Of a stretch of DNA of 55,632 nucleotides, positions 30,834-37,466 are shown piece after piece. How positions within the stretch are numbered: position 1 is the stretch's first letter; each line of letters starts with the position of its first letter. The notes beneath the pieces are model-generated. The model searched no databases. It saw only the letters and a list, made by a program, of their open reading frames with translations, and had not been told where the DNA came from. A program made the position numbers and the translations under genes. Location: sequence record SRR2962707_1079; one strand, 5' to 3'.

Positions 30834-31772
30834 CTAATAAGGCGCAGCGCTCAGCTCTTGAAAGGTTTGTGTGAGAAGGTTAAGAAACAGTTCTTGCGGC
30901 TTATTAGGTTGAGAAGACTTCTTACAAATCACCGCCACTCCTAAGGTATAAGAGCGATGCTTTTCTGCCACTTTCACTATTTTGCCTTGCTCAACATAAG
31001 GTTGGCCGTACAACTCAGGCAAAAATCCAATGTATTTACCAGATAAGATCAGCGCCAAACGACTGTCGTAAAAATAAGACACCGCGGTCATGTTCATTCT
31101 TGCTATTTGATTGCTGATCGCTTCATGGGGTTTCAAACCAGCATGAGTCGCTGGATAGAGGTCAGCGGTGCTGTCTTGCTCTTGTTCCGACATGCCTGCC
31201 AACAGGTGCTCGCTGCCACAATACAAATAACACACATCGCTATAGAGGTGGATATACTCCAAACCTTCTAGTTTACGGTGGTAAGGTATAAAACCTATGT
31301 CCGCCTCATCGTTCAATATCATACGCTCAATATTCGACATAGACGCGACATTCGTGGTGATAGAAACTTCTGGAGCCTCGTTAGAAAAACGTTGAATCAG
31401 CTCAGGAAAATGACTGCGTGGGTCTAAGCTCACCTTATCAGACAAGGCGATTCTTAACTTACCAGTAAGGCTGGCATTTAGATTGTTTACCGTGGTTCGA
31501 AAGGCGTCCAAAGAATCCAGTAGATTTTCTGTCATTTGATAAATGACAACGCCTTCTTCGGTAAGAGAAAAGCCACCACGACCACGCTTACAAAGCACCA
31601 AGTTTAAGCGAGATTCTAAGTTTGAAATATGCAAACTGATGGTTGAACGCCCGATGTTTAACGCCGTTTCTGCCGCCGAAAAACCACCGCAATCCACCAC
31701 GCTTTTAAACACTTTTAATTGCTTAATCTCATAATCACCAACTTGACCCAGTGAGTAATTTTTTGCGCTCAT
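30834..31772 (-). CDS. LysR-family regulator (BauR-like)
   Basis: QVGDYEIKQLKVFKSVVDCGGFSAAE...IGRSTIS...LESRL...LCKRGRGGFSLTEEG, recalled as resembling Pseudomonas BauR; not verified by search. Confidence 0.9.
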   Translation of the reverse strand: MSAKNYSLGQVGDYEIKQLKVFKSVVDCGGFSAAETALNIGRSTISLHISNLESRLNLVLCKRGRGGFSLTEEGVVIYQMTENLLDSLDAFRTTVNNLNASLTGKLRIALSDKVSLDPRSHFPELIQRFSNEAPEVSITTNVASMSNIERMILNDEADIGFIPYHRKLEGLEYIHLYSDVCYLYCGSEHLLAGMSEQEQDSTADLYPATHAGLKPHEAISNQIARMNMTAVSYFYDSRLALILSGKYIGFLPELYGQPYVEQGKIVKVAEKHRSYTLGVAVICKKSSQPNKPQELFLNLLTQTFQELSAAPY

Positions 31773-31907
31773 CGCCTCCCCCTATGTGTACTCACATGCA
31801 TTTTATTATTTTAGGCCTGTGCAAACCAAACAATAGTTTGGTCGATATGCAGTATGACTATAATACGACGAGCACAGATCGCACATAATAAATGATCGTC
31901 GCAATTT

Positions 31908-31937
31908 AGTTCGTTGATTCTCTAACTTTACATTGAT
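31908..31937 (+). promoter_or_regulatory. LysR-type operator copy 2 (divergent from the LysR gene)
   Basis: AGTTCG-ttgattct-CTAACT-tta-CATTGAT; candidate -10 TAAGGT at 31970. Confidence 0.7.
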
Positions 31938-31981
31938 TTATCCGACTTTCATCCCTCTTTCTGCTTCTTTAAGGTAAGAAG

Positions 31982-32151
31982 CGTCGGTTACCACAGCAAA
32001 ACTGTCTTCATAATGACGTTTTATGCATTCAGGATGATTCGTATCCGCTTGGTTAAACCCTGAAATAAAGCGTCGAATTTTGGCCTTTCATTTCATTCTT
32101 CCAGCACGTTATTGTGGCCTGTTTGTCTTGCTTGATAAACAGGCTTTTTTT
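31982..32151 (+). ncRNA. Candidate structured RNA of about 170 nt (sRNA or cis-regulatory leader)
   Basis: Predicted promoter upstream, long hairpin 32015-32074, CU-rich linker, strong intrinsic terminator. 5' end inferred. Confidence 0.55.
32117..32151 (+). terminator. Intrinsic terminator 51 nt upstream of the chemoreceptor start
   Basis: GCCTGTTTGTC-TTGCTT-GATAAACAGGC-TTTTTTT. Confidence 0.88.
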
Positions 32152-32202
32152 GTCATTTTGATTGCTTCCCTTCTTTTCAGAAAGGGTTTAAAGGAGGTTG
32201 AT

Positions 32203-34092
32203 ATGTCCATTACGTTATCCGTTCGTCAGAAACTCATTGCTATTGTTGTTTTAGTCTGTATTGGGTACGCAGGGTTTGGCGCTTACTCCATTTATAACTT
32301 GTCGCAAATGTCGAACGCGTCCGATGAGGCCACCGAGCTGAGCAGGTTAACCAATGAAGTTAAAGACGTTGAAATTGCTTTACTAAAATTTGAACGAGAA
32401 ATGGCAACGATCTCACCTGATAATGTTGATGCTATCAGCCAAACATTAGTAAGGATAAAAAATGAGACCGCCGCTGGATTGAACATCAGAGCAGATTTAC
32501 TGGATACCGAAGGCAAGACGCTATTAGAGAATAGCCAAACCTTACAGCCTAATTATTTATTAGCACTTGAAAGTCACCTGCAAAGTTTAATCACCCTTGG
32601 GCTAAGCGGCGAAACGGGCGCACTGGGCCGATTAAATCAATCCGCACAAGATTTGGCAGAGCAACTCAAATCGTTAGCCAGTTTTGCTTCTAGTTTTAAA
32701 GAGGTAAGAGCGAGAGAAAAAGATTTTCTAGCTTACAGCGATCCTGAACACCAAGCCGCTTTACAATCTGCTATTCAGGCTCTCAAAAATAATGTCGATA
32801 ATGTAGGCTTTGGCGATGTATTTGGCCCGAAGATTCAAACCTATGAGGATGCATTGGCGCCTGTTATTGGACTGTCTACTACCTTAAAGAAACAACAAAG
32901 CAAACTCGCATCATTAAGTAATCAATACACTCACTCCATGGATAAGAGTGCCAACTATTTACAAAATACTCTGCTGGCTCAGGCGCAAATACGTTCATTA
33001 GAAACAGCCAAACAAGCGCGCAGCTCTTTAGTGATCGCTTGTGTCTTACTTGCTCTAGTTATTGGTCTTATTTTATCGACGGTGATCCGCTCTTTAAACC
33101 GCAATCTAAAAGCCGTGTTAGCGATATTAAAAGAAGTCGCGCAAGGTAGACTTCATTCCCGTCAACAAAGCCAAGACTCAGATAACCCCGATGAGTTCCA
33201 GCAGCTGTTCATTGCCTCAAACCAAATGTCTGATAGCTTACGCTTGTTGATTAGTCATTTAATAAACAGCAACGAAAAACTGGTACTAACGGCCGATGAG
33301 CTGGACAGTGGTATTCAAATTATTGTCAGCGGCAGCGAGCGTATTCGTGATCGGAGTAACACACTGGCCGCCTCGACTGAAGAAATATCCGCCACCGCAG
33401 ATACCGTACAATCGATGACGCAGAACGTTCAAAGTGCTGCGGAACTGGCTTATGGGTCCGCCACCAGTGGTGTGAATGCAATGCGTGATGCTATGACCAG
33501 CATCAGCGATGTAGCAGACACAATTCAAGATACCAATGAGCGAGTCGCTCGCCTTGGTACTCTGTCTAAAGAAATAGATGTGGTTATCGAGCTTATAGTC
33601 GGTGTCGCAGAGCAAACGAGTTTGTTAGCACTTAATGCCGCAATAGAAGCGGCTCGAGCAGGGGAAGCTGGGCGAGGTTTTGCCGTCGTGGCAGACGAAG
33701 TTAAAACACTGTCTGAGCAAACAGTGAAGGCATCTGGAAGTATTACAGAGAAAGTCGAAAACATTCAGAAAGAAACTCAAGCGGTGATTGATGCCATGAC
33801 GCTGAGCCTAAGTAAGGTTGGCCGCAGTAAAGAGCAAGGCGAAAACGCAGTGAAAATTATCCACCTAGTTGAGCAAAACACCCTAGAAGCGATGAACAAT
33901 ACGCAAGAAATTACCCAAGCGATAAAAGAGGTCGCGTTGACGACGGCGCAAATGGCACAAGACATGGACATCATTGCTCATGATATTAAAGACAACCATG
34001 TCGCAACTCAATCCATCCAAACGGCCAATAAAAATGTTCACCATCAAACCAAAAGATTAGACAACCAAATACAAGGCTTTGACATCACTTAG
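32203..34092 (+). CDS. Methyl-accepting chemotaxis protein with a large helical periplasmic sensor domain
   Basis: TM1, about 270-aa helical periplasmic region, TM2, HAMP (DEF), signalling hairpin [42 protein letters not shown]. Confidence 0.95.
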
Positions 34093-34356: not shown

Positions 34357-34386
34357 TGTTTGATGACGACAAAACTTTAGATAGAT
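34357..34386 (+). promoter_or_regulatory. LysR-type operator copy 3 (TRAP operon)
   Basis: TGTTTG-atgacgac-AAAACT-tta-GATAGAT; weak -10-like AAGTAT at 34419. Confidence 0.62.
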
Positions 34387-34491
34387 TTTGCGAGCTTTAT
34401 TACGCTCGGGCTTTTTGAAAGTATCAATTACAAGGTGTCACAACATCAAAAACGTGACTTTTTTATGCACTTTTGTTCTCGAGGTAACTCA

Positions 34492-35517
34492 ATGATTAAG
34501 ACGATACTAAAAGTAAAAAAACGATTGGTTGTAAGTTCTCTAGCGGTAGCTCTTGGATTAAGCGCGGTCGCGTCTTCTGCACATGCTGCAGATTATAACT
34601 GGCGCTTCGCTAACCTATACAGCCGCGGCTCTGCATTCGGCGCGGTATACGAAGATTTAGCAAAGAACATTGAAACTATGTCTGATGGCCGTATCAAGGT
34701 GCAGGTTCTTTATGACGGTGAAGGTGTTGGTTCTTCTGGTATTTTTGGCGCCGTGAAAACAGGCCTAATAACAATGGGGGCGACTTTCCAATCTTTGAAC
34801 GCAGGTGAGCTTCCTGCAGGCTTGGTTGAAATTGGTCTACCTGGCGGCACGAGCGATGTTGGCGAGCTGACTACCTTATTCCAAGAAAAAGGCTGGGCAC
34901 CAATTCTTAAAAAAGCATACGGTGAACAAGGGCTAGTGTGGCTTACCCCTTACATTCAACCTGCTGTTTACGTTATTACTAAAAAACCTATCAACTCTAT
35001 TAAAGACTTCCAAGGGTTGAAAATTCGCGCTCCCGGCGCATACGGTAAGTTCTTACGTAACCTAGGCGCATCACCTGTTTCTCTTGCCTGGTCTGAGATC
35101 TACACAAGTCTTTCCACTGGCGTTATCGACGGTTCTATCGGTTCTAATATGATTGACCACCGAGATGGTAACCATGTTGAAGTAGCAAAATATATGTATC
35201 CACTTCCTCTAGCTGGTGCACAAGTGCTACCTATTATTGTCAACCAAAGCGCTTGGAACAAACTTCCTACAGACTTAAAAGCCATTGTTAAAGCAGCGAC
35301 TACAGTTCACGCCCAAGAGCAAATGACGAAGTCTAGACTATGGGAATCTGAAGCCGTTGCCGATATGGAAGCAAAAGGTTTACAGTGGAGCCCTGAACCA
35401 AGTGCAGCAGATAAAGCAGCATGGAAAGAAGCAGGCTCTAAACTATGGGATGAGTACGCTTCAGCAGACAAATACAGTAAAGAGTTGATTGATATTCTTC
35501 GTCTAGAACAAAAATAA
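34492..35517 (+). CDS. dctP: TRAP transporter substrate-binding protein (DctP family)
   Basis: Signal peptide ending AHA, MSDGRIKVQV, GLKIRAPG, LGASPV, EIYTSLSTGVIDG, WNKLPTDLK; GAGGT RBS. Confidence 0.93.
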   Translation: MIKTILKVKKRLVVSSLAVALGLSAVASSAHAADYNWRFANLYSRGSAFGAVYEDLAKNIETMSDGRIKVQVLYDGEGVGSSGIFGAVKTGLITMGATFQSLNAGELPAGLVEIGLPGGTSDVGELTTLFQEKGWAPILKKAYGEQGLVWLTPYIQPAVYVITKKPINSIKDFQGLKIRAPGAYGKFLRNLGASPVSLAWSEIYTSLSTGVIDGSIGSNMIDHRDGNHVEVAKYMYPLPLAGAQVLPIIVNQSAWNKLPTDLKAIVKAATTVHAQEQMTKSRLWESEAVADMEAKGLQWSPEPSAADKAAWKEAGSKLWDEYASADKYSKELIDILRLEQK

Positions 35518-35595
35518 TCTACTCAGTAATAACTAAAACGGCCTTCATTAAGAAGGCCGTTTTAATTTTCGATCCATCCTAACAGGTACAAAACA

Positions 35596-36150
35596 ATGAT
35601 AATGACTGCGATTAGGCGCTATTGTCTTGGAGTCCACGCATTAGTGGCTTTCATTGGGAATTCCGTTTCCTATCTTATGCCGGTATTAGCATTTGTCGTT
35701 GCTTTCGAGGTTTTCTCTCGTTACATCTTAGACAGCCCAACCATCTGGGCTTACGACACTTCGCTATTTATCTTTGGCTATATTGCCGCATTAGGTGGTG
35801 CTTATGCCCAACAGCAACGTGCGCACATCAATGTCGATATCCTTTACAACAAAGTTTCAACTCGAACGAAAAGCATATTTAACCTATTTTCATTCGCTCT
35901 CGCCATGTTCTTTATGGTTATCGTCTGCAAAATGAGCATAGGTAAGTTTGAAGAAGCGCTCGAATTTAACTATCGGCGCCAAAGTGAATGGGCTCCTCAC
36001 ATGCATCATTACTGGTTAATGATGGCAATCGCTAGCGTGCTACTTATTTTGCAACTTTCCAGTGACTGGATTGATTCATTACACCAAGCAATTACTGGTA
36101 AACCCTTATTACCAGAAGCACCGACCGAACAAGAGGAATCCGTACAATGA
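35596..36150 (+). CDS. dctQ: TRAP transporter small permease
   Basis: EVFSRY, PTIWAYD, AHINVD; 4 TM; overlaps the dctM start (ATGA). Confidence 0.92.
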   Translation: MIMTAIRRYCLGVHALVAFIGNSVSYLMPVLAFVVAFEVFSRYILDSPTIWAYDTSLFIFGYIAALGGAYAQQQRAHINVDILYNKVSTRTKSIFNLFSFALAMFFMVIVCKMSIGKFEEALEFNYRRQSEWAPHMHHYWLMMAIASVLLILQLSSDWIDSLHQAITGKPLLPEAPTEQEESVQ

Positions 36151-37466
36151 TTAGTATTGAATTATTAACGGGCATTTTATTTGCCTGCATCATAGCTGCG
36201 TTTGCCTTGGGAGCACCGGTTGGTTTAGCGCTTGGCGGCATCGCGATGGGCATCGGCTATATGACGTGGGGCGACGCTTTATTTAACGTCATTCCGACCA
36301 CGCTCGAATCAACCCACTTTAGTTTTATTTTACTTGCTATCCCTTTGTATATATACATGGGGCAGTTGCTAACTCGCTCTGGTATTGGCGATGCTATGTT
36401 CGCTGCCAGCCAAATGTTGATTGGTCGTGTCCGAGGATCATTAGCCATCAGCGTTATTGTGGTGTGCTCTATGATCGGCGCTATGGTGGGTATTATCGGC
36501 GCGGGCATCATGACGTCTGGAAGTATCGCACTGCGTCCTATGTTAGAACGAGGTTACGATAAACGCCTAGCACTTGGCGTTATTATGGCTGGTGGTGGTT
36601 TAGGCATCTTGATTCCACCAAGCATCCCAATGATCATGTTTGCGTCATCTACACAAAACTCTGTTGGCCGTATGTTTATTGGTGCTTTGATTCCAGCACT
36701 TATTACTATCATTTTGCTGATCGGTTACGTGATTATTTCGTGTAAGTTGAATCCTAAACGCGCTCCTATGGATGTTGTTCCAGAAGTCCAACCAACGCCA
36801 AAAGAGAAGTTCCTAACGGCTCGTGATGGCTTATTGTCTCTACTGCTGATTGTGGCCGTACTTGGCAGTATTATCATGGGAATCGCGACACCAACAGAAT
36901 CTGGTGCGATAGGTGTTGTCGGTGCTATTGTTCTTGCGATTTTCTTTAAACGCTTCAAACCACGCATGGTACAAAAGGCTGGCATGCAAGCAGCGCTGCT
37001 GGTAAGTGTGGCAATGTGGATTATTGTTGGTGCGTCGGTATTCAGTAACTTTCATTTGCTGATGGGCGTGCAAAACATGGTTGCGGGGTTTACTCAAGAT
37101 TTGGGATTACCGCCAATTGTTGTCATCATGTTGTTCCAATTGATCATGCTATTGCTAGGCTTCATTATCGACGAATTTATCATCGTCCTAATGTGTGCAC
37201 CTATATTCACACCGATTGCCGTGTCACTTGGCTACGATCCAATTTGGTTTGGTATCTTGATGATTCTAAACATTGAGATCGCCGTACAAACACCACCTTA
37301 TGGTTTTGCTTTGTTTTACCTAAAAGGCATCGCGCCTCCTGGTATCACCATGTTGGATATCTATAAATCCATTACGCCATTTGTATTGCTGAAACTTTTG
37401 GTTCTTGTCATCGTAATGATGTTCCCAGAGTTAGTAACTTGGTTGCCTAATCAGCTTATGGATTAG
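36147..37466 (+). CDS. dctM: TRAP transporter large permease
   Basis: LLAIPLY, GGGLGILIPPSIP, ATPTESG, DPIWFG, TPPYG. Confidence 0.95.
   Translation: MISIELLTGILFACIIAAFALGAPVGLALGGIAMGIGYMTWGDALFNVIPTTLESTHFSFILLAIPLYIYMGQLLTRSGIGDAMFAASQMLIGRVRGSLAISVIVVCSMIGAMVGIIGAGIMTSGSIALRPMLERGYDKRLALGVIMAGGGLGILIPPSIPMIMFASSTQNSVGRMFIGALIPALITIILLIGYVIISCKLNPKRAPMDVVPEVQPTPKEKFLTARDGLLSLLLIVAVLGSIIMGIATPTESGAIGVVGAIVLAIFFKRFKPRMVQKAGMQAALLVSVAMWIIVGASVFSNFHLLMGVQNMVAGFTQDLGLPPIVVIMLFQLIMLLLGFIIDEFIIVLMCAPIFTPIAVSLGYDPIWFGILMILNIEIAVQTPPYGFALFYLKGIAPPGITMLDIYKSITPFVLLKLLVLVIVMMFPELVTWLPNQLMD

Follow-up and report, generated by a model that had tools for sequence, protein, structure and literature searches.

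We describe a candidate small RNA (sRNA) gene in a 55,632-nucleotide (nt) stretch of DNA (sequence record SRR2962707_1079), referred to throughout as the window. The RNA, of about 170 nt, lies on the (+) strand at 31982-32151 in the 430-nt gap (31773-32202) between a gene for a transcriptional regulator of the LysR type (LTTR) and a gene for a methyl-accepting chemotaxis protein (MCP). It is adjacent to and divergent from lysR, and this order is the same in all orthologous loci. It is supported by covariance-model matches and covariation; the predicted 5' end is placed to within a few nt and the 3' end at the U tract of an intrinsic terminator. We regard it as likely that a real, structured, terminated RNA is made here. 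The full interpretation, which we favour with modest confidence, is that of a LysR-activated, independently terminated sRNA that probably acts in trans, with the MCP gene probably expressed by read-through. In this scheme the sRNA gene would form a regulatory pair with the divergent regulator, LysR binding a dyad box at 31908-31936 and activating a weak sigma-70 promoter (-10 TAAGGT, 31970-75). Most transcripts would end at a strong terminator (to 32151), giving an RNA of ~170 nt with helices P1/P1a and SL2, a CU-rich stretch, a U-rich stretch and the terminator hairpin. The CU-rich stretch, perhaps together with an ACCCUG linker, would most likely let this RNA act in trans on purine-rich ribosome-binding regions of mRNAs, and a minority of read-through transcripts would express the chemoreceptor, so that one LysR-dependent promoter would yield two products. 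The same LysR also seems to drive the genes of a tripartite ATP-independent periplasmic (TRAP) transporter from a second box at 34358.

In orthologous loci the RNA is part of a unit of near-constant length made up of an LTTR-type dyad box, a TAnnnT -10 element, ~170 nt of RNA and the terminator. The box (box-R, a putative LysR binding site recognised by its conservation; 31908-31936, (+) strand) consists of the dyad AGTT (31908-11)-N12-AACT (31924-27) followed by TTTACATTGA; its full sequence, AGTTCGTTGATTCTCTAACTTTACATTGA, occurs once in the window and is nearly invariant across the aligned orthologous loci. The distance from box to terminator was 211-243 nt in all orthologues, whereas the distance from the lysR start to the box ranged from 46 to 185 nt. 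Thus, the box is fixed relative to the terminator and variable relative to lysR, and so belongs with the RNA and not with lysR. The centre of the dyad lies ~64 nt upstream of the RNA start near 31982, which is the usual position of the recognition site for LysR-type activators, and we infer that box-R binds LysR. Conservation also points to a promoter core at 31946-31975 on the (+) strand, with a weak -35 element, CTTTCA (31946-51), an 18-nt spacer and the -10 hexamer TAAGGT (31970-75). CTTTCA is conserved in the orthologue alignments, and the -10 hexamer retains T-A-n-n-n-T in the lineages read by eye (TAAGGT, TATGGT, TACAGT, TACTGT). An LTTR-type box upstream of an RNA divergent from the LysR gene agrees with an earlier reading of this DNA made from its letters alone (the sequence-only reading), which had proposed a regulator with a divergent sRNA in the manner of gcvA/gcvB and oxyR/oxyS.

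The terminator (32116-32151, (+) strand) was identified by scanning, folding and conservation. It has a 12-bp stem (32116-32127 with 32134-32145; 5 of the 12 pairs are G-C), a 6-nt loop and a U7 tract (T7 at 32145-32151), with a folding energy of -18.0 kcal/mol, and the scan returned two terminator-like sites in the region where 0.7 were expected. It forms in all 20 full-length folds and is retained in 20/20 aligned orthologues, in five of which one pair is fully compensatory (U-A to C-G). A terminator with a U7 tract ending at 32151, as the sequence-only reading had it, is thus borne out by both the scan and the orthologues.

Upstream of the terminator the RNA is predicted to form a 5' domain (31985-32047, (+) strand), in which P1 (31985-91 with 32041-47, with one U.U mismatch) encloses the hairpin P1a (31998-32006 with 32015-22), and a further hairpin, SL2 (32062-70 with 32086-94; 32062-32094, (+) strand). 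The 5' domain was recognised by covariation and SL2 by the pairing kept in orthologues. Region 31970-32205 folds modestly better than shuffled sequences (z -2.54; 3 of 200 shuffles fold as well). P1, P1a, SL2 and the terminator were proposed from single-sequence folds and inspection. MAFFT misaligns the variable 5' domain, and a covariance model, built from 13 sequences with the most divergent subgroup (group B) left out, was therefore used to realign the sequences, which leans the alignment toward the model's structure. In the resulting fitted alignment of 20 sequences, 94.5% of cells in these four helices were paired and 19 of 35 pairs had changed on both sides; none of 500 shuffles reached as high and slid controls gave at most 53%. 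Both-sided changes were seen in 5/7 pairs of P1 and 7/7 of P1a in this alignment. Furthermore, group B, aligned by the model built without it, showed compensatory P1 pairs (CAAACAC/GUGUUUG versus CGGUUAC/GUAUCCG). The unfitted MAFFT alignment of the 13 sequences gave 92.6% of cells paired, a percentage reached by 0/500 shuffles, with 7/36 pairs changed on both sides. Three of the six outer pairs of SL2 had changed on both sides in the unfitted alignment, and SL2 pairing was kept as, for example, GAGAUGAAGCGC/GCGCUUCAUCUC in one orthologue (L020) and AAAAUGAAG/CUUCAUUUU in another (L019). Covariation across orthologous regions, the check that the sequence-only reading had proposed, supports P1, P1a, SL2 and the terminator, and with them its central claim of a conserved, structured, terminator-ended RNA of ~170 nt divergent from the LysR gene. 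Four species (L015-L018) carry a ~20-nt insertion inside the RNA that repeats a CUGAAAU motif; in two of the four a 12-nt deletion is present as well, which leaves P1a shorter and still paired.

The same reading had proposed a different internal fold, a long hairpin pairing 32015-24 with 32065-74 and 32028-33 with 32059-64. This hairpin can form in the window, and in the 13 unfitted sequences 85.0% of its cells are paired, with 5/16 pairs changed on both sides and 8 of 500 shuffles reaching the paired percentage. Because it takes up P1a's 3' strand and SL2's 5' strand, it excludes both of these helices. We consider P1, P1a and SL2 the better-supported fold because their paired percentage is higher, because pairing in the main helix of the long hairpin drops to 62% on 20 sequences, and because in one orthologue (L016) P1a seems, from the alignments, perfectly kept through compensatory changes (GUC/GAC to GCC/GGC), while the helix of the long hairpin seems to be broken. 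The long hairpin may be a second, alternative conformer.

Between SL2 and the terminator lies a CU-rich, predicted single-stranded stretch (~32095-32115), with a U-rich stretch just before the terminator. Its core, CUUCCAG (32098-32104, (+) strand), is a candidate seed by conservation and predicted accessibility: it is identical in 19 of 20 aligned RNAs (UUUCCAG in L019), its mean predicted unpaired probability is 0.69 compared to 0.42 for the whole RNA, and it lies above the RNA's own average in 20/20. CUUCCAG would thus supply the conserved, accessible seed of a base-pairing sRNA. A second conserved element is the linker CUUGGUUAAACCCUG (32048-32062, (+) strand) with the motif ACCCUG (32057-62), which is kept in the window's clade as GCUYGGUUAWACC(C/U)U; ACCCU also occurs in RNA loops of deeper Marinomonas lineages and of Oceanospirillum. 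The nearest genome has an hfq gene, and as judged from the predicted structure the RNA has the usual build of an Hfq-type base-pairing sRNA. Pairing of the RNA's GGUUACC with the ribosome-binding region of dctP (GAGGUAAC) was considered as a candidate interaction and dropped, because the GGUUACC segment is part of P1 and missing from group B.

A DNA search gave matches in 9 of 41 related genomes and then in 28 of 64 genus genomes, and every strong match is flanked by an orthologue of the same LysR and, in most cases, of the same MCP. A second covariance model found one copy per genome, with E <= 1e-14 in 22/64 genus genomes. Orthologues of LysR were found at 80 loci, which were scanned with a simple custom script for the box followed by a hairpin and T run. 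This box-RNA-terminator layout was present in 42 of the 80, the hairpin and T run lying 134-236 nt after the box; one further locus (L087), where the layout is visible by eye, fell below the script's threshold and is outside the 42. Among the 42 are loci of deeper Marinomonas lineages, Maribrevibacterium and Oceanospirillum. RNAalifold, applied to an unfitted alignment of nine deeper Marinomonas species, predicted three stem-loops with 26 pairs, 7 of them with compensatory changes, and these RNAs carry AUCACCC in the first loop and a single-stranded GAGAAUCUUCGUACUU before the terminator. At six loci, distant RNAs gave weak model matches (E 0.002-0.07) where an RNA was expected. Judging by position, box, length and short motifs, the most distant RNAs may be homologous to that of the window. 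In the Oceanospirillum loci (L095-L104) a box, a ~140-nt terminated unit and, ~110 nt on, a second strong terminator lie 150-600 nt from the lysR start, which suggests that these loci hold two tandem short units.

The RNA is also found without the chemoreceptor. In one species (L014/L062) the MCP gene is cleanly deleted, and an RNA ~93% identical to the window's is followed by dctP. The M. balearica locus (L083) has no MCP gene and reads lysR, box, RNA and terminator and then, after ~300 nt, a second box ahead of dctP; a similar order was found at L047 (genome G066), whose LysR is 75% identical. Across the 42 layout loci the downstream gene was an MCP gene in 25, MCP-like in 1, dctP in 2, and another gene or none within 1.5 kb in 14; these 14 include a fumarase-family lyase, a periplasmic binding protein and a flavoprotein. 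The proposal that the RNA gates the chemoreceptor is not sustained by an RNA that is kept in L014/L062, L047 and L083 without an MCP gene and ahead of varying downstream genes. The chemoreceptor is most likely a frequent downstream passenger and not the RNA's purpose.

In the window a second LysR-type box, box-D (GTTTGATGACGACAAAACTTTAGATAGATTTTG; 34358-34390, (+) strand), was recognised upstream of dctP by comparison with relatives. It begins GTTTGATGACGACAAAACTTTA..., lies ~75 nt upstream of the dctP open reading frame (ORF), and has AACTTTA-n-AT-GATTT and CTTT(C/A)(A/T)T, equally spaced, in common with box-R. At four loci (L074, L076, L077 and L080) lysR is divergent from dctP with only the box-D kind and no RNA, and none of eight dctP-proximal boxes has a terminator downstream. 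Since dctP has its own box and the RNA is kept without the MCP gene, the RNA appears to be a box-to-terminator unit of its own, and LysR probably has two local promoters, one for the RNA and one for dctP. The dctP leader contains a small hairpin followed by U6 (GUCAC...GUGAC UUUUUU, ~34437-34465), which looks like a weak attenuator.

The spacer between terminator and MCP start (32152-32202, (+) strand; 51 nt) contains, by orthologue comparison, a subgroup-specific hairpin and the Shine-Dalgarno sequence AGGAGG (32192-97). It ranges from 30 to 78 nt in orthologues, its sequences are unrelated in other lineages, and the consensus scan called no promoter within 32152-32202. The inner hairpin, CCCUUCU/AGAAAGGG, is found only in the window's closest subgroup and leaves the Shine-Dalgarno sequence outside. 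The hairpin at 32165-97 that was earlier suggested to hide the ribosome-binding site of the MCP gene is thus confined to a single subgroup, with the Shine-Dalgarno sequence outside its inner stem. Directly after the U tract, CATTTTGATTGC (32152-32167) is kept in group A, L003 and L020/L021 despite otherwise differing spacers, and may serve in processing, in binding or as a promoter element. From TTGATA-N16-CATTTT and CATTTTGATTGC one might read a promoter of the MCP gene's own, inside the terminator or immediately behind it; these elements are weak and do not occur in all lineages, and a promoter overlapping the terminator is possible but weak. Two loci (L007 and L008) have lost the 3' arm and U tract of the terminator and carry a second box copy ~130 nt upstream of the MCP ATG. 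MCP transcripts probably start at the RNA promoter and read through the terminator, because the 30-78-nt spacer holds no called promoter and because the box of L007/L008 lies near the MCP gene. The intergenic region of these two loci, and also of L058, is rearranged, with two box copies ~290 nt apart and unrelated sequence between them; the second box is followed by a remnant of the RNA 3' part only (GCUCCCAGC ... UAGCCUGUUUACCG), which leads straight into the MCP gene. In L007 that gene matches as two pieces that lie in different frames.

Several observations weigh against a LysR-activated sRNA acting in trans. An MCP gene lies downstream in most layout loci (25/42), and the L007/L008 arrangement indicates that this type of promoter can drive the MCP gene directly and fits a leader role too. 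The consensus promoter scan did not call the proposed promoter at 31946-31975. RNAalifold on the unfitted 20-sequence MAFFT alignment recovered the terminator alone, the highest covariation figures come from the alignment fitted to the structure, and the long hairpin also retains 85% pairing with double changes, so that the internal fold is not settled. What links the Oceanospirillum RNAs to that of the window is their layout and short motifs, with one weak model match (L103, E 0.054). A duplex-energy target scan against all start regions in the window gave unrelated internal starts as its top matches, which we regard as noise; neither of the local starts, those of the MCP gene and dctP, was prominent. 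Finally, the region is present in public runs as contigs only, which cannot show ends, strand or level. One of the four public runs compared is clearly RNA. Another, X4, whose kind is not established, holds a 160-nt contig (31991-32150) together with separate lysR and MCP contigs, and nothing is drawn from it; parts left uncovered in runs X1-X3 carry no information.

Much of this evidence bears on the possibility that the RNA is a cis-acting leader, with the LysR promoter serving the MCP gene (and perhaps dctPQM), the terminator acting as an attenuator set by a protein, a ligand or translation, and the 170-nt RNA arising as a by-product. The frequent MCP gene downstream, the short spacer in which no promoter was called and the L007/L008 box driving a terminator-less remnant into the MCP gene all fit such a leader, as do two mutually exclusive folds that both retain most pairs. 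In 12/20 folds of transcripts cut before the 3' arm of the terminator, moreover, the extreme 5' end is paired with the 5' arm. However, shuffling the first 14 nt still gives an expected 8.7/20, so that this pairing is mostly explained by base composition, and an antiterminator formed from the 5' end and the terminator arm was rejected as not above the shuffled control. The related proposal of the sequence-only reading, that the 5' end (31986-96) competes for the base of the terminator (32112-19), fared no better: none of its pairs has changed on both sides, 500/500 shuffles score as high as the real alignment, and the C-G pair at its centre is seen in the window only (1/13), the near-identical genome G001 having T at 32114. 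The terminator by comparison forms in every full-length fold. RNA, box and terminator persist at loci that have lost or lack the MCP gene and in which a separate box precedes dctP, the downstream gene varies among relatives, and neither a conserved leader peptide nor an Rfam riboswitch or leader match was found. We therefore hold a cis-acting leader to be possible but on the unlikely side. A leader peptide was considered for a 16-17-amino-acid (aa) ORF (32013-32063 in the window, 16 aa), which is in frame in 8 of 9 sequences of the window's closest subgroup. It was rejected, as it is absent outside that subgroup and has no ribosome-binding site. As a small protein in its own right this ORF is extremely improbable: the kept frame of 16-17 aa speaks for it, but there is no upstream Shine-Dalgarno sequence, the start is lost in L015, and L002, L003, L027 and group B have no equivalent.

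A new metabolite-sensing riboswitch, whose 5' domain (P1) would bind a compound handled by the TRAP transporter and switch the terminator, appears very improbable. A structured domain and terminator upstream of transport and chemotaxis genes do resemble riboswitches, P1 is conserved with covariation, and its U.U mismatch recurs in several lineages. The interior of the 5' domain, however, is mostly variable in sequence and length: between lineages P1a differs completely, with deletions and a 20-nt duplication. The best-conserved nucleotides, including the longest conserved stretches, are linear single-stranded motifs and not junctions. The RNA is already under a ligand-sensing LTTR and persists before unrelated genes. 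We found neither mutually exclusive, covarying terminator and antiterminator helices nor a conserved ligand core with a constant gene link, and the riboswitch or attenuator that had been suggested for this region is not borne out by a variable 5' domain with no covarying competition. A search of Rfam 15 is consistent with this. The window had no match at the gathering threshold, its best hits being chance-level eukaryotic families, and six related loci gave nothing meaningful, in keeping with the statement of the sequence-only reading that no known riboswitch class could be matched. One of the six, the M. balearica RNA (L083 1181-1360, (-) strand), gave a sub-threshold match to GlmZ (26 bits versus 60, E 0.008); the other five gave none, and the match is probably due to chance.

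It could also be argued that no functional RNA exists and that conservation reflects DNA-level elements, namely regulator sites and an insulating terminator. The strongest sequence conservation does lie in the box and promoter region, and the public runs, in which the region appears as contigs only, contain no observed transcript. Nevertheless, three helices downstream of the promoter carry compensatory changes, a sign that RNA pairing is under selection, the terminator stands at a fixed distance from a promoter-like box with no gene between and no obvious DNA-level use, and the lysR-proximal part of the intergenic region varies freely in length whereas the RNA part does not. We consider this reading very improbable. 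A more elaborate scheme, which we view as doubtful, would make the RNA from the one LysR-dependent promoter a two-state molecule: the P1/P1a/SL2 conformer would alternate with the long hairpin, which would free a longer CU-rich stretch, and the conformer balance or terminator efficiency would govern how active the trans-acting sRNA is as well as how much chemoreceptor is made by read-through, the pairing of RNA and LysR being an old module of Marinomonas, Maribrevibacterium and Oceanospirillum. If this were true, a single signal would link uptake (TRAP), chemotaxis (MCP) and post-transcriptional control.

The genes around the RNA were assigned from family models and position. The LysR-type regulator gene (30834-31772, (-) strand; 312 aa) has the Pfam domains HTH_1 and LysR_substrate and matched no NCBIfam equivalog at its cut-off; the nearest named record is Marinomonas arenicola, with 100% LysR identity. 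The MCP gene (32203-34092, (+) strand; 629 aa; Pfam MCPsignal) is followed 3' by the TRAP transporter genes dctP, dctQ and dctM (34435-37466, (+) strand). The dctP ORF (Pfam DctP, NCBIfam) runs from 34435, its start being probably the ATG at 34493 as read from homology. dctQ (35596-36150, (+) strand) is named by its position between dctP and dctM; NCBIfam gave no family for this ORF, and Pfam DctQ was found for the corresponding L047 gene only. dctM (36147-37466, (+) strand) was assigned by NCBIfam. All the sequence strings quoted in the sequence-only reading are present where it placed them. The ATG of the MCP gene lies at 32203 and not at 32204.

Comparison of window positions 30834-33300 with L011 (genome G055) showed a nucleotide identity of 64-77% across lysR, which rises to 90-96% exactly at the lysR start and remains at that level across the intergenic region, the RNA and the MCP gene's 5' part. 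The window's LysR is 96% and 92% identical to those of two named species that lack the whole RNA-MCP-dctPQM block. These comparisons suggest a mosaic ancestry, by recombination or transfer of the RNA-MCP-dctPQM block, with a breakpoint at the lysR start. Contigs of runs X1 and X2 follow lysR to its start (window position 31772) and then diverge into other sequence, the first 17 letters of which are the same as in the stretch that adjoins lysR in the two named block-less species.

Rfam has no model for this RNA, and a full-text literature search combining Marinomonas, sRNA and Hfq returned incidental mentions only and no paper describing a Marinomonas sRNA. The literature on LysR-type regulators with divergent sRNAs includes the known GcvA/GcvB (PMC1557403, PMC3658693) and LsrB (PMC11975290) cases. 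The RNA is a new family in a known kind of layout. If confirmed, it would offer a candidate sRNA with clear limits, for which both a regulator (the divergent LysR) and a seed are predicted, and an easy entry to how a marine heterotroph couples transport, chemotaxis and post-transcriptional control. Natural 'knock-out' lineages are at hand in species without the RNA, without the MCP gene or with a lost terminator. It would add one more LTTR-sRNA pair to a small set, with a possible read-through product, and no new principle.

In the enterobacterial GcvB/GcvA and OxyS/OxyR pairs an Hfq-type sRNA gene with its own terminator lies divergent from the gene of its activating LysR-type regulator. The divergent LysR layout, the intrinsic terminator, the conserved single-stranded seed and the Hfq-type build, here predicted, are common to these pairs and the RNA described here. 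However, the RNA matches neither the sequence nor the structure of the GcvB and OxyS Rfam models, and its seed is CU-rich (CUUCCAG) whereas that of GcvB is GU-rich. Unlike in GcvB and OxyS, a protein gene follows in the same direction 51 nt after the terminator, and the regulator appears to have a second nearby target promoter, that of dctP. AbcR1 and AbcR2 of the Rhizobiales are sRNAs activated by the adjoining LTTR VtlR/LsrB, and their C/U-rich motifs are directed at ribosome-binding regions, many of which belong to transporter mRNAs. An LTTR adjoining an sRNA, a C/U-rich motif and a link to transport, here the TRAP locus, are shared with that system, but the phylum-level group and the RNA are different, there is no Rfam match, and a single copy stands here in place of a tandem pair. 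A third comparison is with sRNAs that arise from premature termination in a 5' leader, such as SreA and SreB (S-adenosylmethionine riboswitches of Listeria) and rnTrpL (the trp attenuator of Sinorhizobium). In common with these, one promoter would yield a short terminated RNA, possibly trans-active, and a longer read-through mRNA. Sensing by a ligand or a leader peptide is known in those systems, whereas no antiterminator, ligand domain or leader peptide is supported here, and the RNA of the LysR locus survives loss of the downstream gene.

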